Source: a virus (lineage: Duplodnaviria; Heunggongvirae; Uroviricota; Caudoviricetes). Taken from it: a stretch of DNA of 9,743 bases. The position numbers and the translations under genes were made by a program. Below the pieces are notes generated by a model that was given only the letters and a program-made list of their open reading frames with translations, made no database searches and had not been told where the DNA came from. Of the stretch, positions 1 through 8,939 are shown piece after piece (within the stretch, counting starts at the first letter, position 1; every line of letters begins with the position of its first letter). The stretch lies in IMG/VR virus record IMGVR_UViG_3300029623_000287; one strand, given 5' to 3'.

Positions 1-2375
1 GTAAAAATTTCTGGCGTGCTTAAAGATGGCACAGGAAAACCAGTACAGAACTGCACCATTGTGCTGAAGGCCAGACGAACCAGCAGCACGGTGGTGGTGA
101 ACACGGTGGCCTCTGAAAATCCGGATGAAGCCGGACGTTACAGCATGGATGTTGAGCATGGTCAGTACAGCGTCACCCTGCTGGTTGAAGGTTTTCCGCC
201 TTCACATGCCGGGACCATTACCGTCTATGAAGGTTCCAGACCAGGTACGCTGAATGATTTTCTCGGTGCCATGACGGAGGATGATGTCCGACCGGAGGCA
301 CTGCGCCGCTTTGAGCAGATGGTGGAAGAAGCGGCACGCAACGCTGAAGCCGCCTCTCAGAGCGCAGCGGCGGCAAAGAAATCCGAAACTGCAGCGGCAT
401 CATCGAAGAACGCGGCGAAAACCTCAGAAACGAATGCAGCTAACAGCGCACAGGCGGCAGCGGCCTCGCAGACTGCATCGGCAAACTCCGCAACAGCAGC
501 TAAAAAATCAGAAACCAACGCGAAAAATAGCGAGACAGCCGCAAAGACGAGCGAAACCAACGCAAAGTCCAGCCAGACGGCAGCGAAGACCAGCGAAACG
601 AATGCTAAAGCCAGTGAAACTGCGGCAAAAAACAGCCAGGTTGCAGCAGCCCAAAGCGAGAGCGCGGCAGCCGGTTCTGCGACTTCAGCAGCTGGATCAG
701 CAACTGCTGCGGCTAACAGCCAGAAAGCTGCGAAGACGAGTGAAACTAACGCAAAGTCCAGCCAGACGGCAGCGAAGACCAGCGAAACGAATGCCAAAGC
801 CAGTGAAACTGCGGCGAAAAGCAGTCAGGATGCAGCGGCCCAAAGCGAGAGTGCCGCAGCCAGTTCTGCAAGCGCGGCGGCTGCTTCTGCTACTGCATCA
901 GCTAACAGTCAAAAAGCAGCAAAAACCAGTGAAACCAACGCAAAGGTGAGCGAAACAGCGGCTGCGAACTCAGCGAAAGCATCGGCAGCAAGCCAGACGG
1001 CAGCTAAAGCAAGCGAAGATGCAGCCAGAGAGTACGCAAGCCAGGCTGCGGAGCCGTATAAATATGTCTTACAGCCGCTGCCTGATGTGTGGATACCATT
1101 TAACGATTCGCTGGATATGATTACGGGCTTTTCGCCATCATATAAAAAAATTGTTATTGGTGACGATGAAATAACGATGCCTGGCGACAAGATTGTTAAG
1201 TTTAAACGTGCATCGAAAGCAACCTATATTAACAAATCTGGTGTGCTGACAGAGGCTGCCATTGACGAGCCACGATTTGAACGTGATGGCCTGCTTATTG
1301 AGGGGCAAAGAACAAACTACATGCTCAATTCGGAAAGCCCTGCCAGTTGGGGGCGATCGTCAAATATGGATGTGCCCGAAACAGGGACGGATAATTTTGG
1401 TTTTACCTATGGAAAGTTTGTCTGCAACGATTCTCTGATTGGGCAAACCTCAGCCATTAATATGGCATCAATTGCTGCAACAAAGTCAGTTGATGTCTCA
1501 GGCGATAATAAACACGTGACAACCTCATGTCGTTTTAAAACAGAACTGCAGGTAAGGTTGCGTATCCGGTTTGATAAATATGACGGTAGCGCAACAACTT
1601 TTCTTGGTGATGCGTATATTGATACACAAACGCTTGAAATTAATATGACAGGCGGTGCTGCCTCAAGAATTACAGCGAGAGTCAGAAAGGACGAAGCTAC
1701 CGGATGGATTTTTGCAGAGGCAACAATTCAGGCAATTGATGGGGAGTTAAAAATAGGCTCTCAGATACAGTATTCTCCTAAGCAGAGCGGGGCAACCGTA
1801 TCTGGTGACTATATTTATCTGGCCACCCCACAAGTAGAAGATGGGCCTTGTGTATCATCTTTTATTATATCAGGAGCGACGGCGGCGACCCGCGCAAGCG
1901 ATATAGTTACAGTTCCAATTAAGAATAATCTTTATAATCTTCCTTTTACGGTTCTTTGTGAGGTACATAAGAACTGGTATAAAACGCCNNNNNNNNNNNN
2001 NNNNNNNNNNGTGTTTTTGATACCGGCGGTCATCAAACCGGAGCGGCTATTATTCTTGGCTTCGGTCGTTCAACAGATTACGACGGATTTCCTTATTGTG
2101 ATATAGGTTTGGCTAACAGACGGGTAAACGAAAACGCATCGCTTGAAAAAATGGTTATGGGGATGCGTGTAAAGTCAGATCAGTCTACGTGCTCAGTAAG
2201 TAACGGGCGTATATCCAGCGAAAAGAAAGCCACATGGTCCTATATTCAGAACTCCGCAATTATCCGTATTGGAGGCCAGACTACAGCCGGGTTGCGTCAT
2301 TTATTTGGTCATGTCAGGAATTTCAGAATATGGCACAAGGCATTGACTGATGCTCAGATGGGGGAGTCAATCTAA
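1..2375 (+). CDS. Lambdoid prophage side tail fiber protein (Stf-like N-terminus, Ala/Ser/Thr-rich repeat shaft, LamG-like distal domain); 5' end at or just beyond the window edge; interrupted by a 22-N gap
   Basis: Frame 1 is open from nt 1 (VKISGVLKDGTGKPVQNC..., recalled from memory as matching the N-terminus of lambda Stf-type side tail fibers; GTG at 16 is an alternative in-window start). Residues ~110-340 are a low-complexity shaft of AAKTSETNAK-type repeats. After the gap the open frame continues in frame 3 (from 2013) to TAA at 2373-2375. The C-terminus ...GHVRNFRIWHKALTDAQM resembles the closing strand motif of LamG/concanavalin-A-like jelly-roll domains, and FTVLCEVHKNW just before the gap resembles the opening of such a domain, so the domain appears to span the gap and both sides are most likely one gene. 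Confidence 0.8.
541..960 (+). repeat. In-frame tandem repeat, 189-nt period (63 aa), two near-identical full units (541-729, 730-918) plus a partial third, nested in a longer low-complexity Ala/Ser/Thr-rich coding tract (~330-1030)
   Basis: Direct reading: gcaaagacgagcgaaaccaacgcaaagtccagccagacggcagcgaagaccagcgaaacgaatgc... at 541 recurs at 730 with a few substitutions and partially again at 919. The protein units read AAKTSETNAKSSQTAAKTSETNAKASETAAK(N/S)SQ...ANSQKA. Confidence 0.8.
1989..2010. other. Run of 22 N (assembly gap or masked bases) inside the tail fiber coding region
   Basis: Literal n characters at 1989..2010. The flanking open frames differ (frame 1 before, frame 3 after), consistent with an arbitrary gap length. 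Confidence 0.95.
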
Positions 2376-2656
2376 TGAAAGATTTAACACTCAAATTTGC
2401 AGACAGGGCCGACTTTTCGGCCTTTATGGATAGCATTGGCTATTATGATGACGAGTCGATGCAGGATGATATTCTTATTGACGTGATAGGTAACGTGTAC
2501 AAAGAAACCGGAGAACTGACTGAAGATGGCGAACCGGTATGTGTTAAGGAAGATGGATATTTTGTAAACGTGCGCATCATTAATGATGCAAAAAAATCGT
2601 CAATATTCGATGAATACGCGGTTGTAGTTGAACATCAACTTCGTGGCTGGATGTGA
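2375..2656 (+). CDS. Hypothetical small acidic protein (93 aa), translationally coupled to the tail fiber gene; possible fiber accessory or assembly protein
   Basis: Its ATG overlaps the tail fiber stop by one base (TAATG at 2373-2377). A GGGGAG Shine-Dalgarno site lies 8 nt upstream. The protein is rich in Asp/Glu with no obvious transmembrane segment. No family is recognised from sequence alone. Confidence 0.55.
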   Translation: MKDLTLKFADRADFSAFMDSIGYYDDESMQDDILIDVIGNVYKETGELTEDGEPVCVKEDGYFVNVRIINDAKKSSIFDEYAVVVEHQLRGWM

Positions 2657-2665
2657 GGGAGACAA

Positions 2666-3370
2666 ATGGCTACATCGACAGTAATTCCAGGAGACATCAC
2701 CACGTTAAAGGGAGATGTCAGTAAAGCCAAGGAAGATATTTCCTCAATTAACGGAAAAGTATCAACGCTTCAGGCTGATATGACCAGTGCAAAGCAGGAT
2801 ATCAGCACCAGATACACAAAAACTGAAGTTGATAATAAGCTGAAAAACAAACTGGAAGTGAACGCTCTGGAAAGCGGTCGTTATGGTGGAGATTTTTACC
2901 CGTTGACTGGCCGTGAAGCGTTTTATTTGTGGGGATTGGGCACGACTACAGCGGCGGCAAACCTTTATCTTAATCCTGACCCTGCAATTTCGTCTGTGCT
3001 GCGGTCAACATCGTCTATCCGCTATAAACATTCAGTAGAGACGATAGATTCAGAGCACGCCGATCTCATTTTCAGGATGCGCCCTGTGTGGTACAGGTCG
3101 CAATGCGAAAATGACAGGCGCGATTGGGGATTCTATGGATTGATTGCCGAGGAAGTAGGAGAAATTGCCCCCCAGTTTGTACACTGGCGATCAGCTAACG
3201 AAGATGATGCACCGGAAGCTATTTCCAGCAATGGCCTTGTTGCCGAAGGTGTAATGTACGAACGTCTGGTTGTTCCACTGATTCACCATATCCAGAAACT
3301 GACTGAAAGATTTGATGAACTTGAGTCAGAATTGAAGTTGTTATCAACTTCCCGAAGCGATATCGGATAA
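2666..3370 (+). CDS. Tail-fiber-like protein (234 aa): N-terminal coiled-coil repeats plus C-terminal intramolecular chaperone / peptidase S74-like autoprocessing domain
   Basis: A GAGGGAGA Shine-Dalgarno site lies 4-5 nt upstream of the ATG. The N-terminus has heptad-like repeats (DITTLKGDVSKAKEDISSINGKVSTLQADMTSAKQDIS). The C-terminal half carries the motif series recalled for S74 chaperone domains of phage fibers and tailspikes: a Ser...Lys pair spaced i/i+5 (SSIRYK), RPVWY, GLIAEEVGEIAPQFV, and a terminal helix (LIHHIQKLTERFDELESELKLL). Confidence 0.65.
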   Translation: MATSTVIPGDITTLKGDVSKAKEDISSINGKVSTLQADMTSAKQDISTRYTKTEVDNKLKNKLEVNALESGRYGGDFYPLTGREAFYLWGLGTTTAAANLYLNPDPAISSVLRSTSSIRYKHSVETIDSEHADLIFRMRPVWYRSQCENDRRDWGFYGLIAEEVGEIAPQFVHWRSANEDDAPEAISSNGLVAEGVMYERLVVPLIHHIQKLTERFDELESELKLLSTSRSDIG

Positions 3371-3380
3371 AGGAGGAGTA

Positions 3381-3674
3381 ATGGATATAACACCTTTTCT
3401 TCATGCGCTTTGTGCTGTGGCTGCGCAGGTACTGATTGGTCTTTTTACCGGAAACTGGGTTTACGGGGCGATAGCCGGTTGTACGTTCTTCATTGCGCGT
3501 GAACACACCCAGGCAGAATATCGCTGGATTGAAATGTTCGGGCATGGCAAGCGAATGAATATGCCGTGGTGGGGCGGTTTTGATCCGCGCGCGTGGGATG
3601 TGGCAAGCCTGATGGATTTTGCTGTGCCGGTGGTGGCGTGTCTGCTGCTCTGGCTGTTGGTTAATCGTGGGTGA
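3381..3674 (+). CDS. Small integral membrane protein (97 aa), function unknown; last + strand gene before the convergent sit operon
   Basis: A strong AGGAGG Shine-Dalgarno site lies 4 nt upstream of the ATG. Hydrophobic segments at roughly residues 8-38 and 78-94 flank a Trp/Arg-rich loop (EYRWIEMFGHGKRMNMPWWGGFDPRAWD). Stop TGA at 3672-3674. Confidence 0.6.
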   Translation: MDITPFLHALCAVAAQVLIGLFTGNWVYGAIAGCTFFIAREHTQAEYRWIEMFGHGKRMNMPWWGGFDPRAWDVASLMDFAVPVVACLLLWLLVNRG

Positions 3675-3765
3675 AAAAAGGTGAGCTGTATATGCAACGG
3701 AGGAAGAACCCCCGTTGCTGGAAGCCAGGAAAAAGTATCGGGTGTTGCTGTCCTCGGATATTGTG

Positions 3766-4623
3766 CTAATTGGGTGATAACAGATCCTGTGTATGGGAGT
3801 TTCCCTTTTTGCGTGCGTTGATGCTGGTAACGGCAAACGTCATGATGAACAAAACCGCGAATAAGACGACAATCGTCGGAGCTGGTGCGCTGTCGATAAA
3901 AAAGGACAACCAGACACCAGTCATTGACACTATTACCGATATGCCAGTCGCCAGTAGGAGCGCAATGTGAAAGCGTTGTGTCAGGAGTACCGCAATGGCG
4001 CCAGGCGCAATGAGCAGAGAAATGGAGAGAATGATACCTACCGCTTTCAGCGTCGCCACAATGGTCAGAGAGACCATGCACAGCAGCCCATAATGCAGCC
4101 ATCTCGTATGCAAACCGCTTACCTGCGCCTGTTGATAATCAAAGCTGAACAGCAAAAAATCCCGCCATTTTACGCTAATAACAAGTGTAACCAGCCCGGC
4201 AATAATCATCGTCTGGATTATATCGCCGATGGTTATCCCGAGCATGTCGCCGAAAAGAATATGGTCAAGATGTACGTCTGGTTTGACTGCAATATACAAG
4301 ATCAGACCTGCGGCAAACATGCCAGAAAAAACAATCCCCATCACTGTATCTTGCTTGATTCGGCTGTTGTCTTTCAGGTATCCCGTCGCCACCGCGCAGA
4401 ATACTCCGGCGACGAATGCCCCTGTAGCCAAAGGTAACCCCAGAATCCAGGCAAGCACGATGCCAGGAAAAACCGCATGACTCATCGCGTCACCCATCAG
4501 TGCCCAACCTTTCAGGACCAGAAAGACCGACAGCAGCGCACAGGGTATGGAAACTAACAGTGAAATCAGCAGTGCGTGACTCATAAAGGTGAACTGCAGT
4601 GGCTCCAGTAATAATGCCATCAT
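3766..4623 (-). CDS. sitD: Mn2+/Fe2+ ABC transporter permease SitD
   Basis: 285-aa polytopic membrane protein, paralogous to the upstream permease. Its ATG overlaps the sitC stop by 4 nt (ATGA). It is the last gene of the four-gene operon. Confidence 0.92.
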   Translation of the reverse strand: MMALLLEPLQFTFMSHALLISLLVSIPCALLSVFLVLKGWALMGDAMSHAVFPGIVLAWILGLPLATGAFVAGVFCAVATGYLKDNSRIKQDTVMGIVFSGMFAAGLILYIAVKPDVHLDHILFGDMLGITIGDIIQTMIIAGLVTLVISVKWRDFLLFSFDYQQAQVSGLHTRWLHYGLLCMVSLTIVATLKAVGIILSISLLIAPGAIAVLLTQRFHIALLLATGISVIVSMTGVWLSFFIDSAPAPTIVVLFAVLFIMTFAVTSINARKKGNSHTQDLLSPN

Positions 4624-5477
4624 GAGCGATCCTCCAGCGCCTTATGTGCACGCCGACGATTTGCCAAAAGCCCATGGGTGGGCGCAAAGACAAATGCTAA
4701 AAGAAACAGCAGTGTCTGCGCCACCACGATGATTCCACCTGTCGCGCCGTCCAGAAAGTAACTGACCCACGCGCCGAGGAAACTGGTTACACTGCCAATA
4801 GTTACAGCAATCATGAGCAGGCGGGGAAAACGATCGGTTAACAACCATGCTGTTGCACCGGGAGTCACCACCAGACAGATCACCAGAAAGGCACCAACCG
4901 TTTGCAGCGCCGCAACGGTCGAAACCGACAGCAGGGTGAAGAAGAGGAGTTTTAATCTGCCCGGATGCAATCCAATAGCACGGGCGTGATTCTCGTCGAA
5001 AAAGGTCACCATAAGATCTTTCCATTTGAAAAAAAGCACGATGATCGAGAGAATGCCAATGATAGTGAGTTGCAGGATATCCGCCGGATCGATTGCCAGA
5101 ATATTGCCCAGGACGATGGTCTGAATGTTCACAGATGTCGGGTTCAATGACACCATAAACAGCCCCAGGCCAAAAAAGGACGAGAAGATCAGGCCGATGA
5201 TGGCATCTTCTTTTAAGCGGGTGCGTTGGTTAAGAAACAGCATGCTGCCCGCAGCCAGTCCGCCGGAAAAGAAGGCTCCCAGAGAAAACGGAAGCCCCAG
5301 CATATATGCCCCCGCAACACCCGGGACAATAGAGTGCGACAACGCATCGCCAATCAGCGACCAGCCTTTTAGCATCAGATAGCATGACAGGAAAGCGCAG
5401 AGACCGCCGACCATCGCCGAGACCCACATCGCATTGAGCATATATTCATAGCTGAAGGGTTCCAGTAGCACGTTCAT
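4620..5477 (-). CDS. sitC: Mn2+/Fe2+ ABC transporter permease SitC
   Basis: 285-aa polytopic membrane protein of the ABC-3 (metal-type) permease family. Its ATG overlaps the sitB stop by 4 nt. Confidence 0.92.
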
Positions 5478-6301
5478 CTTTCTTCCCTCTGCACCGCTGA
5501 CGGTCGATGAGCCACAAAAGGGCGTTCATCGTCAGTAATAATGCTTTCTTCCGAGCCGTTAAGTGTGACATGGCGCAGTACGCCGCTAAAAGCCAGCTCC
5601 AGGTTCTCGGCTGTAAAAGTGGTGTCTGTCGGCCCGCTTGCCAGGACGGTGCCTTTGACCATGACCGTATAATCGCAAAATGTCGTGACGGATCCGAGAT
5701 TGTGTGTTGAGACAAGCATCGTTTTGCCTTCCGCGCGTAACTCCCTCAACAGGCTGATGATTTTGGCTTCGGTTTTCACATCAACGCCAGTAAAAGGTTC
5801 ATCCAGCAGGATCACATCACCCTGCTGTGCAATCGCTCTCGCCAGAAAGACGCGTTTCTTTTGTCCACCGGAAAGCTCGCCGATTTGTCGATGGCGAAAA
5901 TTCACCATATCGACACGTTCCAGCGCATCGGTGACAATTTGACGATCCCTCTTTTTGGCGATACGCAACATACCCATATGCCCATAGCGGCCCATCATCA
6001 CCACATCTTCCACCAGTACAGGAAATGACCAGTCAACCTCTTCTGACTGAGGGACGTAGGCAACCAGGTTTTTCTGTAACGCCTGTCGCGTGGGAATACC
6101 CAGAACAGATATCTTTCCGCTGGTCAGACGCACAAATCCCATAATCGCTTTAAACAACGTCGATTTTCCGGAACCGTTTACCCCAACCAGAGCGGCAATA
6201 GATCCACTTGGTACTGTGAAGGATGCATCGCGCAGTGCTGTGTGCCCGTTACGCCAGGTGACAGTAACATCATTAACGACAATGCCTGCAGATTGCATCA
6301 T
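5474..6301 (-). CDS. sitB: Mn2+/Fe2+ ABC transporter ATP-binding protein SitB
   Basis: Walker A ([10 protein letters not shown]), ABC signature (LSGGQKKR) and Walker B (VILLDEPF) are all present. The start overlaps the sitA stop (TAATGATG). Confidence 0.95.
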
Positions 6302-7215
6302 TATTTCTCCCTTTTCCCGGCTTTAATTCCCTGTACCAGCGTACTGGTAGTAACCTTAAGAAGGTCGATATACGTCGGTACCGGGCCGTTTTCTGTGCTC
6401 AGTGAATCGACATAGAGCACACCGCCGTAGTGTGCGCCGGTTTCACGCGCAACCTGACGCGCTGGTTTATCGGAAATCGTACTCTCGCTAAAGACTGCCG
6501 GGATATGATTTTTCTTAACTATATCAACAACCTTACGTACCTGCTGCGGTGTTCCTTGTTGATCGGCATTAATCGGCCACAGATAAAGCTCTTTTAGCCC
6601 CAAATCGCGTGCGAGATAAGAAAAAGCCCCTTCACTGGTGACCATCCATCGCTGATTCTCAGGGAGTTCCGTAATCTGCTTACGCAGGGGGGCAAGGGTT
6701 TGGGTAATCTTGGCTTTATAAGTATCGGCATTGCGTTGGTAGGTTTGTGCATTTGCCGGATCGTATTTTATCAACGCATCACGAATATTATCGACGTAAA
6801 TCAGAGCATTATCTGGCGACATCCATGCATGGGGGTTAGGTTTGCCCTCATAGGGTCCTTCGGTGATCCCTACAGGCGTCACACCCGAAGAGACAATTAC
6901 TTCTGGAACCCCATTGAGATGCTGGTAAAAGCGTTGGAACCACAATTCCAGATTCATACCATTGGCGAGAATCAGTTGTGCCCCCTGCGCACGTTTAATA
7001 TCGCCAGGGGTAGGCTGATACTCATGAATTTCTGCACCAGGCTTGGTTATGGATGAGACTTCTGCAGCATCTCCTGCCACGTTTTTGGCCATATCCGCGA
7101 TGATGGTAAATGTTGTAATGACCTTGAATTTTTCAGTTGCACTTGCCTGAAATGCGATCGAGCAGGTGAGTGCGAGGCCCCCCAAGAGCATGGTTACTTT
7201 TTTTATTGAGTGCAT
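6301..7215 (-). CDS. sitA: Periplasmic Mn2+/Fe2+-binding protein SitA (cluster A-I substrate-binding protein)
   Basis: 304 aa with an N-terminal signal peptide ([26 protein letters not shown]). The sequence matches SitA as I recall it (EKFKVITTF..., [12 protein letters not shown]..., NPHAWMSP...). It is the first gene of the operon, directly downstream of the Fur and MntR boxes. Confidence 0.95.
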
Positions 7216-7655: not shown

Positions 7656-8939
7656 ATGGACTTCCAGTTATATTCGCTCGGCGCAGCGTTAGTGTTTCAT
7701 GAAATATTTTTTCCTGAATCATCAACGGCAATGGCGTTAATTCTGGCAATGGGAACCTATGGTGCAGGTTATGTGGCACGTATTGTCGGAGCATTTATTT
7801 TCGGCAAAATGGGCGACAGAATAGGGCGTAAAAAAGTGCTCTTTATTACCATCACCATGATGGGGATCTGTACCACCTTAATTGGTGTGTTACCGACTTA
7901 TGCACAAATTGGTGTTTTTGCCCCCATCTTGCTGGTGACGCTGCGTATTATTCAGGGGTTGGGTGCAGGTGCGGAAATTTCCGGTGCCGGTACGATGCTG
8001 GCGGAATATGCGCCAAAAGGTAAGCGCGGAATTATCTCCTCATTTGTGGCTATGGGAACTAACTGCGGAACCCTGAGCGCAACGGCAATCTGGGCCTTTA
8101 TGTTCTTCATTCTCAGTAAAGAGGAACTGCTGGCGTGGGGATGGCGTATACCTTTCCTGGCGAGCGTTGTCGTGATGGTCTTTGCTATCTGGTTGCGTAT
8201 GAATCTGAAAGAAAGCCCGGTCTTTGAGAAGGTTAACGACAGCAACCAACCGACAGCAAAACCTGCACCTGCTGGTAGCATGTTCCAGAGCAAATCCTTC
8301 TGGCTGGCAACAGGGCTGCGTTTTGGTCAGGCTGGTAACTCCGGTTTAATTCAGACTTTCCTTGCAGGCTATTTAGTGCAGACGTTATTGTTTAACAAAG
8401 CAATTCCAACAGATGCATTGATGATCAGTTCGATTCTCGGCTTTATGACCATTCCGTTCCTTGGTTGGTTATCCGATAAAATTGGTCGCCGGATCCCGTA
8501 TATTATTATGAATACCTCTGCGATTGTGCTGGCGTGGCCAATGCTTTCTATCATCGTAGATAAAAGCTATGCCCCGAGCACCATTATGGTTGCACTGATT
8601 GTGATTCATAACTGTGCGGTGCTGGGATTATTTGCTCTGGAAAACATTACCATGGCAGAAATGTTCGGCTGTAAAAACCGCTTTACCCGGATGGCCATTT
8701 CTAAAGAAATTGGTGGTCTTATCGCTTCCGGTTTTGGTCCTATCCTGGCGGGTATTTTCTGCACCATGACGGAATCCTGGTATCCGATCGCCATTATGAT
8801 CATGGCATATTCAGTGATTGGTTTAATCTCTGCGCTGAAAATGCCAGAAGTGAAAGACCGTGATTTAAGTGCGCTGGAAGACGCTGCGGAAGATCAACCG
8901 CGTGTTGTAACAGCTGCGCAACCTTCCAGAAGTCTTTAA
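7656..8939 (+). CDS. ydfJ: MFS transporter, metabolite:H+ symporter (MHS) family, YdfJ-like; N-terminally truncated relative to full-length family members (possible pseudogene)
   Basis: 427-aa 11-12 TM protein. The first ATG at 7656 is preceded in frame by TGA at 7650-7652 and has no Shine-Dalgarno site. The protein begins inside the conserved TM1 motif (MDFQLYSLGAALVFHEIFFP, compared with ProP ...EWFDFGVYGFVAYALGKVFFP), so about 25-30 N-terminal residues appear to be missing. The conserved GDRIGRKK loop 2-3 motif is present. Confidence 0.88.
   Translation: MDFQLYSLGAALVFHEIFFPESSTAMALILAMGTYGAGYVARIVGAFIFGKMGDRIGRKKVLFITITMMGICTTLIGVLPTYAQIGVFAPILLVTLRIIQGLGAGAEISGAGTMLAEYAPKGKRGIISSFVAMGTNCGTLSATAIWAFMFFILSKEELLAWGWRIPFLASVVVMVFAIWLRMNLKESPVFEKVNDSNQPTAKPAPAGSMFQSKSFWLATGLRFGQAGNSGLIQTFLAGYLVQTLLFNKAIPTDALMISSILGFMTIPFLGWLSDKIGRRIPYIIMNTSAIVLAWPMLSIIVDKSYAPSTIMVALIVIHNCAVLGLFALENITMAEMFGCKNRFTRMAISKEIGGLIASGFGPILAGIFCTMTESWYPIAIMIMAYSVIGLISALKMPEVKDRDLSALEDAAEDQPRVVTAAQPSRSL

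Follow-up and report, generated by a model that had tools for sequence, protein, structure and literature searches.

The gene that opens the window, that is, the whole 9,743-nucleotide stretch of viral DNA analysed here, is probably a three-module side tail fibre (Stf) gene of a lambda-like E. coli prophage, the distal part of which was imported with a cassette, binds polysaccharide and gives rise to a branched fibre (Table 1). An stf gene whose outer end, of a sugar-binding type, comes from other phages, together with two to three small downstream genes, is an ordinary, catalogued E. coli prophage type, and the fibre protein is already known, with entries in RefSeq, PHROGs and NCBIfam, and a T5-like phage with this architecture has been reported. 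New here is the extent of the swapped unit, which is a cassette of ~2.6 kb that runs from 1072 to ~3690 and includes the downstream genes.

Table 1. Features of the fibre gene and the imported cassette (window coordinates)
Feature	Position	Strand	Evidence or remark
stf-type side tail fibre gene	1–2375	+	Stop TAA 2373–2375; phrog_1419 matched end to end
Lambdoid Stf N-terminal (tail-attachment) domain	1–387	+	PF08400
Ala/Ser/Thr-rich repetitive shaft	388–1071	+	TRF repeats
Left recombination junction, Gln codon of QPLPDVW	1072–1074	+	Homology to fibres with other N-termini begins
Conserved first block of the module (QPLPDVW...EPRFERDGLLIEGQRTN)	1072–1319	+	Alignments 1074–1319; conservation profile
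First part of the module: NCBIfam 'phage head spike fiber' domain, RcGTA Rcc01080-like	1294–1896	+	NF048003
C-terminal part of the module, LamG/pentraxin-like, with RHLFGHVRNFRIWHKALTDAQ	1912–2372	+	Boundary approximate
22-N mask over 14 real bases	1989–2010	.	Comparison with a near-identical genome
93-aa partner gene	2375–2656	+	phrog_1361; start overlaps the fibre stop (TAATG)
234-aa short second fibre	2666–3370	+	N-terminal MATSTVIPGDITTLK peptide, coiled coil, S74 chaperone 3011–3181
97-aa hydrophobic protein, usual cassette end in lambdoid prophages	3381–3674	+	phrog_1443
tfa (tail fibre assembly) 3' remnant	3694–3750	+	Right edge of the replaced block; prophage homology ends

The initial annotation had placed a single fibre gene at 1–2375, with an Stf-like N-terminus, a repetitive shaft, an AT-rich distal part and a LamG-like tip, and all four features were found at about these coordinates. 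The stretch indeed holds one gene, but the window start clips its 5' end by 6 nt, by which Met-Thr is lost, and the low-GC block outruns 2375. In the collinear E. coli genome L001, which matches all 9743 bases with 99.75% identity, the counterpart (11995–14367, WP_021537978.1) is a single intact ORF of 790 aa, and residues 1–790 align to positions 1–793 of the phrog_1419 'tail protein' profile (E 0, 1485 bits). The list of open reading frames cuts the gene in two (16–2106 and 2109–2375), because the mask of 22 N stands for 14 bases, which read AAATGCAGCACCGC in NZ_CP070162. A real or programmed frameshift at ~2106 was thus ruled out, the two segments being an artefact of the mask.

It is accordingly highly improbable that a frameshift in a decaying prophage has made the fibre gene a pseudogene, as the two ORFs in different frames, the reduction of tfa to a mere remnant and the position of the prophage next to sitABCD might suggest, since the change of frame falls on the mask, a near-identical genome carries the intact ORF, and the same architecture is found in the isolated phages 2G7b, Tritos, HannyBb and PhiR63_1.

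The N-terminal domain and the shaft are both of the lambda Stf type. PF08400 ('Prophage tail fibre N-terminal') matched residues 1–129 of the window translation (E 1.5e-67) and residues 1–131 of the full-length L001 protein (E 1.5e-68, 229 bits versus a cutoff of 26.6), and the gene order in L001 is a lambda-like tail set, followed by gpJ, Ail/Lom and, directly after these, the fibre gene, which bears out the proposed attachment function of the N-terminus. In the shaft, TRF detected a 189-bp unit repeated 2.2 times at 529–945 (84% matches, score 603, sub-periods of 21 and 42 bp), corresponding to 63-aa copies at residues 177–239 and 240–302 of the window translation and a partial third copy. 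The 790-aa form and homologues of 727 or 728 aa are about one 63-aa unit apart in length. Together with a GC content of 0.56–0.58 in the windows from 300 to 1050, these repeats agree with the GC-rich repetitive Ala/Ser/Thr shaft described from the sequence at the outset. Lambda Stf (orf401/orf314), which is accompanied by Tfa, shares the PF08400 N-terminus, the Ala/Ser/Thr-rich repetitive shaft and the place after J and lom. In contrast, its distal part is lambda-Stf/T4-gp37-like, whereas here it is a ConA/LamG-type module, and no functional tfa follows here, but the 93-aa gene and a short fibre with an S74 chaperone.

The GC content falls from 0.56 to 0.43 at ~1070 and stays at 0.40–0.45 from 1050 to ~2900, which places the AT-rich part close to the ~1080 initially estimated. 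The low-GC block continues past 2375 through the next two genes to ~3370. The GC content at third codon positions (GC3) also drops, from 0.54 in the N-terminal domain and 0.48 in the shaft to 0.37–0.43 in the module, and the drop holds across 1066–3367, whereas the 97-aa gene (GC3 0.55) is unlike the remainder of the replaced block. High GC at second positions (GC2 0.68), due to the Ala/Ser/Thr codons, makes up about half of the surplus GC of the shaft. Because GC3 falls too, the composition break is not an effect of amino-acid composition alone.

The break in composition coincides with a break in homology. Many alignments to E. coli genomes begin at query positions 373–375, corresponding to 1072–1074 in the window, and scaffolds with different N-termini all converge at (I/L)QPLPDVWIPFNDSL. 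The breakpoint obtained from this comparison of fibres lies 6–8 nt from the position claimed before. A second class of breakpoints was seen at ~1317–1331, where alignments either span 1074–1319 only or end at 1317–1331; the first block of the module is common to many distal modules that otherwise differ. The module is borne by at least six unrelated N-terminal scaffolds, among them fibres of P2/Mu-like and T5-like phages, Seuratvirus, Drexlerviridae, Dhillonvirus and Vequintavirus, and 29% of the complete genomes of E. coli contain DNA that matches it. Uniform composition and homology to one known fibre, named in advance as the observation that would speak against mosaicism, is not the case, and the proposed horizontal swapping of a receptor-binding module is supported both by the range of scaffolds and by the common start of the matches.

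The alternative that the break reflects amino-acid composition only, and that the gene is one vertically inherited unit, could draw on the GC2 of the shaft and on the fact that the whole architecture forms one PHROG (phrog_1419) kept in 352 E. coli genomes. It is barely credible, since GC3 changes as well, the alignments begin exactly at the junction, the same module is carried by P2/Mu-like, T5-like and other fibres, and a remnant of tfa lies at the far end of the replaced block.

The imported module comprises 435 aa and begins with QPLPDVW. Its first part matched NF048003 (aa 434–634 on profile positions 1–181 of 182; E 3.3e-13, 50.5 bits versus a cutoff of 36), and a phmmer search of the PDB sequences retrieved 6tb9_F3, the Rcc01080 protein (GhsB) of RcGTA, with E 1.1e-7 over ~245 residues, and no other relative of the module. 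In contrast, Pfam Laminin_G_3 (clan CL0004) stayed below its threshold (13.8–15.6 bits versus 27.6, E 0.019–0.065) and aligned to the last 48 residues only (profile positions 102–149 of 151), a stretch that includes FRIWHKALTDAQM. Judged by sequence, the curated family of the module is therefore NF048003, which is RcGTA head-spike-fibre-like, and not Pfam LamG. The predicted structure of the monomer is all-beta, with a curved two-sheet beta-sandwich (jelly-roll) fold, and the module apparently adopts a ConA/LamG/pentraxin-type fold with two sandwiches in this model. Since Pfam LamG is sub-threshold, the claim of the fold rests on the structure model, and there is no experimental template, because the fibre domain of Rcc01080 is unresolved in the PDB entry, the head fibre structure of RcGTA having been modelled for residues 2–10 alone (PMC7296036). 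The LamG/ConA-like tip of the initial annotation thus holds at the level of the predicted jelly-roll fold, but not at that of the Pfam gathering score, and in place of a single LamG-like tip there is an all-beta module of 435 aa with, apparently, two sandwiches. The module also resembles gp46, 'baseplate wedge 2', of the Pseudomonas phages Pa193 and E217 (PDB 9b45, 8env), with 15% identity and thus as a relation of fold only; gp46 is a component of a myovirus baseplate, whereas the module is a fibre end.

Both the homology and the conservation profile point to a binding role. The capsular polysaccharide is bound by the Rcc01080 protein of RcGTA (PMC10218006; PMC7296036). The alignment to this protein, which accompanies the match to NF048003 over its cutoff, ends near query residue 294 of 435, leaving the last ~140 residues of the module outside. 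In addition, Rcc01080 sits as a single subunit on the pentameric head-spike base via an (I/L)-G repeat peptide (PMC7296036), whereas here the domain forms the end of a tail fibre. With a PF08400 N-terminus and a place among the tail genes, the fibre has the Rcc01080 domain in common with that protein without being a head spike itself. In the conservation profile, the framework strands are kept and the regions between them are variable, the most conserved parts being the first ~80 residues and the last strands. Taken together, the fold, the homology and the variation pattern make a surface polysaccharide, either O-antigen or capsule, the most likely ligand of the module, bound in reversible primary adsorption. 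The literature searched yielded no report on the receptor, binding or assembly of the module in E. coli.

Hydrolase and lyase families exist among the ConA-like sandwiches, so that the module might instead be an enzyme, a glycanase or lyase that degrades the surface polysaccharide. This is improbable, because the best structural matches of the model are non-catalytic (LamG, pentraxin, CBM40, BoNT HcN and AbnA domain 4), the Pfam and NCBIfam searches of the fibre returned no hydrolase or lyase family, and the BASEL authors rank such fibres as non-enzymatic (PMC11990801).

For the small gene directly downstream, the encoded protein is 38–40% identical to gp23 of the phages IrisVonRoten and VogelGryff, and its predicted structure gave no informative structural relative. 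The gene lies behind the module in 7 of 7 phage loci and in all 71 viral loci with room downstream for it, and its product is probably an assembly factor or adaptor of the module.

For the 234-aa protein, the S74 intramolecular chaperone domain scored over the cutoff (PF13884, E 4.3e-6). Its chaperone region (E 3e-7; SSIRYK aligned to SDSRLK) and its N-terminus (12 of 28 residues identical, E 0.002) both match IrisVonRoten gp24. By phmmer matches, the second-fibre gene is present in 30 of the 47 viral loci with room for it, 3 of these 30 sharing residues 1–31 or 1–32 only. The remaining 17, as well as mEp460_4F5 and JeffSchatz, lack this third gene but still carry the module together with the small gene, and branching would be optional, since about a third of the cassettes are without it. 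Synteny and the 28-residue similarity suggest that the 234-aa protein attaches to the fibre. The gene for a second short fibre lies two genes downstream, so that the fibre may extend beyond the module, and the 'tip' may also be a branch point.

At the right edge of the cassette, a homologue of the 97-aa protein was found in most viral loci, and in mEp460_4F5 it directly follows the small gene. The tfa remnant spans ~19 codons and matched PF02413 (Tfa, Caudo_TAP) alone with E 0.033, whereas the PCN033 counterpart gave E 8.5e-17; none of the three downstream proteins matched PF02413. The prophage adjoins sitABCD.

A homologous set of three genes is known from the T5-like phage IrisVonRoten (Bas32), in which Gp22 has been described as a proximal fibre that ends in a 'galectin-like' C-terminal domain, and Gp24 as the T-shaped distal fibre attached to it (Humolli et al. 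2025, PMC11990801). The C-terminal 430-aa module of Gp22 is homologous to the module described here (phmmer E 3e-187), the ~92-aa Gp23 to the small protein encoded here (38% identity, E 8e-21), and Gp24 and the third protein here have in common the MxTxTVIPxDITxLK N-terminus and an intramolecular chaperone at the C-terminus. The two systems differ in the anchor, which is T5-type in IrisVonRoten and lambda Stf-type here, and in the second fibre, since Gp24 has 574 aa and two receptor-binding domains, whereas the protein here has 234 aa and a mature part of ~115 aa. In both, attachment and binding are predictions. The likeness to the branched lateral tail fibres LtfA/LtfB of DT57C and DT571/2 is one of concept: according to the published accounts, a tail-anchored proximal fibre with its own receptor-binding region holds a second fibre via a conserved short N-terminus in these T5-like phages, and the docking region is related to gp14/gp15 of phiEco32 (Golomidova 2016, PMC4728585; PMC10713586).

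This arrangement raises the alternative that the module serves chiefly as a structural hub for the second fibre, the receptor binder being the 234-aa protein or its longer counterparts elsewhere. The conserved order of three genes, the third with a fixed N-terminal peptide and a variable remainder, the term 'proximal fiber' for Gp22 as the bearer of the T-shaped receptor-binding protein Gp24 (PMC11990801), and the strong conservation of the first ~80 residues and the last strands of the module are in line with such a role. We consider it unlikely, though credible, because the module and the small gene are retained in the 17 of 47 cassettes and the two phages without a third gene, much of the module's interior varies strongly and recombines on its own, as expected of a receptor-binding surface, and the RcGTA homologue itself binds the capsule (PMC10218006). 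Structural and binding roles are, in addition, compatible with each other.

Under the reading of an imported, polysaccharide-binding module, the 131-aa N-terminal domain anchors the fibre, presumably a trimer, to the tip of the tail, as family membership and the position after J and lom show, and the repetitive shaft of ~225 aa would set the reach of the fibre. The 435-aa module would provide the reversible primary adsorption to the surface polysaccharide. Recombination brought this module in as part of the ~2.6-kb cassette, displacing the original 3' part of stf and most of tfa. The 93-aa protein, always found with the module, would serve as its assembly factor or adaptor, and the 234-aa self-processing short fibre probably docks via its conserved N-terminal peptide of ~30 residues to yield a branched fibre, by analogy with the predicted pair Gp22/Gp24 of IrisVonRoten.

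Host range in phages depends above all on mosaic tail fibres, and well-defined swap points serve the engineering of phages and phage-derived delivery particles. Whereas the picture of fibre evolution is unchanged by these results, they define precisely the junctions of a module that is very common in E. coli, at 1072–1074, at ~1320 and inside tfa, and the portable unit takes in a small partner gene now annotated as 'hypothetical'. More tentatively, and with more doubt than confidence on our part, the module and the ~92-aa gene could be an obligate receptor-binding cassette of two genes that works without Tfa, with an undescribed assembly factor or adaptor, and offers a universal socket for second fibres via the ~30-residue peptide. 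If so, it would be a plug-and-play branched adhesin, related to the GTA head fibre, that is used across lambdoid, T5-like, Seuratvirus, Drexlerviridae, Dhillonvirus, Vequintavirus and P2/Mu-like phages.

An ORF scan of the window placed the side tail fibre in two ORFs in different frames, 16–2106 and 2109–2375. Alignment with L001, a near-identical locus in E. coli NZ_CP070162 (99.75% identity, collinear across all 9743 bases), revealed that the 22 N at 1989–2010 stand in place of 14 real bases, and the frame is therefore restored once these are in. The mask, by which the frame looks broken, also alters the length, and coordinates past 2010 carry a +8 offset relative to the true sequence. The L001 counterpart is a single 2373-nt gene (WP_021537978.1, 'prophage tail fiber N-terminal domain-containing protein') encoding a 790-aa protein that begins MTVKISG, indicating that the window lacks only the first two codons. 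The collinearity makes the upstream context of L001 usable for the window: the gene follows a full lambda-like tail module comprising tube, G/T, tape measure, M, L, a C40 peptidase, I, J, and Lom. In a megablast search of complete E. coli genomes, 13 records matched at 99% identity or more, and at least 80% of window 1–3700 was covered in 352 genomes.

The initial annotation, which described a Stf-like attachment domain, a repetitive shaft, an AT-rich distal part from about 1080, and a LamG-like end, was right on all points. Fibre residues 1–131 match PF08400 (E = 1.5e-68). The shaft repeat corresponds at the protein level to 63-aa copies, two complete and a partial third, and close homologues of the fibre are mostly 727–728 aa, about one repeat unit less. 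The GC content is 0.56–0.58 up to about 1050 and 0.40–0.45 thereafter. In a codon-position analysis, GC3 also falls, from 0.54 in the N-terminus and 0.48 in the shaft to 0.37–0.43 in the distal module (the last 435 aa, from 1072), indicating that the break is genuine at synonymous sites, although the Ala-rich shaft (GC2 = 0.68) amplifies it. The low-GC stretch outruns the fibre gene, which ends at 2375, and continues to about 3370; GC3 is 0.40 in the next gene, 0.43 in the third, and 0.55 in the fourth, unlike the low-GC genes preceding it.

Homologues of the distal module carry N-termini of the lambdoid Stf type (PF08400), of the P2/Mu-type fibre (PF03406/PF12571; P0047, P0050, and P0105), of Seuratvirus VogelGryff and phage ESCO3, of tinuso and tunus, and of T5-like IrisVonRoten, and all these scaffolds converge at (I/L)QPLPDVWIPFNDSL. 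The P0105 gene adjoins Baseplate_J and Tail_P2_I genes. Across the family (2128 clusters at 50% identity, E ≤0.001), the module is almost always C-terminal, in proteins of widely differing length. When window 700–1500 was compared with E. coli genomes by megablast, a large class of matches started at query 373–375 (window 1072–1074), and further classes ended at about 1317–1331 or covered 1074–1319 only. The module thus opens with a conserved block of ~245 nt that has a recombination hot spot on either side. The module DNA was matched in 1579 of 5426 E. coli genomes, of which 505 reached 80% coverage or more. The multiple scaffolds and the boundary at 1072–1074 bear out the proposed horizontal swap of the receptor-binding module.

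The tfa remnant at the right edge is 92% identical to a tfa pseudogene remnant in E. coli PCN033, which matches PF02413 (E = 8.5e-17), and homology with the PCN033 prophage ends at about 3750, 16 nt short of sitD. Together with the left junction at 1072, the remnant shows that the replaced block extends from 1072 to about 3690, so that the distal portion of the original stf was lost along with the greater part of tfa. PCN033 also has the four-gene cassette, 98% identical (NZ_CP006632 1431771–1435445), within a prophage other than that of the window and at another chromosomal site (yciE/trp side); several pseudogene fragments of tfa and DUF4376 lie after it. The sit operon directly abuts the prophage right end and is followed by truncated ydfJ, so that the prophage and sit appear to be inserted in ydfJ, presumably the site of the Qin prophage in K-12.

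Features of the fibre locus and its right flank (window coordinates)
Feature	Position	Remarks
stf-type fibre gene	1–2375	one gene, cf. WP_021537978.1 in L001
Shaft repeat	529–945	189-bp unit x 2.2, sub-periods 21/42 bp
93-aa gene	2375–2656	start on fibre stop codon (TAATG)
234-aa third gene	2666–3370	MATSTVIPGDITTLK N-terminus, coiled coil, S74 intramolecular chaperone domain
97-aa ORF	3381–3674	phrog_1443; three hydrophobic stretches
tfa (Caudo_TAP) 3'-end remnant	3694–3750	~19 codons, after 97-aa gene
sitDCBA	3766–7215	minus strand; iron/manganese transporter operon
ydfJ	7656–8939	5'-truncated; in L001 annotated pseudogene without N-terminus

The 93-aa protein is 38–40% identical to the products of genes after homologous fibres in IrisVonRoten and VogelGryff. 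The pair of module and small gene was present in 7/7 phage loci from six groups and, among 80 viral contigs found by the module profile, in every one of the 71 that offered 300 nt or more of space; in 67 of these, the small gene begins at offset 0 or −3 relative to the fibre stop. The modelled protein is a small alpha/beta sandwich (pLDDT 84.6), for which no informative structural relative was found. It would help or bridge fibre assembly, acting in Tfa's stead. In phage JeffSchatz (Vequintavirus, 62–4833), a lateral tail fibre of 1479 aa ends in the module. The small gene there is longer, at 110 aa; it contains an internal insertion, differs in its C-terminal tail, and is not followed by a docking-peptide third gene. 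The E. coli-type module and small gene also occur in MG065692, MG065676, MG065635, and MG065655, labelled 'Campylobacter phage' (C13, A116, C12, and C2); these host labels look doubtful, since genomes of such sizes are characteristic of coliphages of the T5-like, Seuratvirus-like, and rV5-like kinds.

Of the 47 contigs with enough room, 30 contained the third gene; in three of the 30 only residues 1–31/32 are common, a pattern consistent with exchangeable fibres that share a conserved docking peptide. The same N-terminal motif stands at the start of the third gene in VogelGryff, tuinn, and KarlBarth, and IrisVonRoten Gp24 matches the 234-aa protein at this peptide and the chaperone region. In IrisVonRoten (Bas32), Gp22 is predicted to serve as the proximal fibre, from which a 'galectin-like' C-terminal domain protrudes and to which the T-shaped Gp24 attaches (Humolli et al., PMC11990801); branched fibres of like logic were deduced from genetics for DT57C (PMC4728585). 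The present locus resembles that of IrisVonRoten in its homologous fibre module, its related small gene, and the Gp24-like peptide and chaperone of its third gene, and the 234-aa protein would form a branch of the fibre. Most lambdoid versions of the cassette close with the 97-aa gene, which in mEp460_4F5 lies directly after the small gene.

Pfam Laminin_G_3 matched the fibre below threshold (E = 0.019–0.065), aligning the last 48 residues only; the curated family match is NCBIfam NF048003 ('phage head spike fiber domain'; residues 434–634, E = 3.3e-13, above cutoff). The sole sequence relative in the PDB is the RcGTA head fibre Rcc01080 (E = 1.1e-7), whose structure is resolved at residues 2–10 only (PMC7296036). 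The distal 416 residues, modelled via the 98% identical homologue P0054 together with 57 homologues whose identity was as low as 24%, formed an all-beta structure (pLDDT 90.6, pTM 0.87), both halves of which were spanned by the laminin LG4-5 tandem in a Foldseek alignment. This model confirms, at the level of prediction, the ConA/LamG-type fold; the module appears to comprise two such sandwiches, not one. The RcGTA homologue binds capsule (PMC10218006), and the module interior is variable between conserved framework strands. From these properties and the fold, the module would bind surface polysaccharide; literature searches turned up no receptor for it in E. coli.

Overall, the fibre is of an already known, ordinary kind: it matches phrog_1419 over its full length, its architecture has been described in the literature, and the annotated RefSeq protein is found in hundreds of genomes as well as in the isolated phages 2G7b, Tritos, HannyBb, and PhiR63_1. 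The present analysis contributes the exact junctions, shows how far the swapped block really extends, and identifies a small partner gene that is invariably present.
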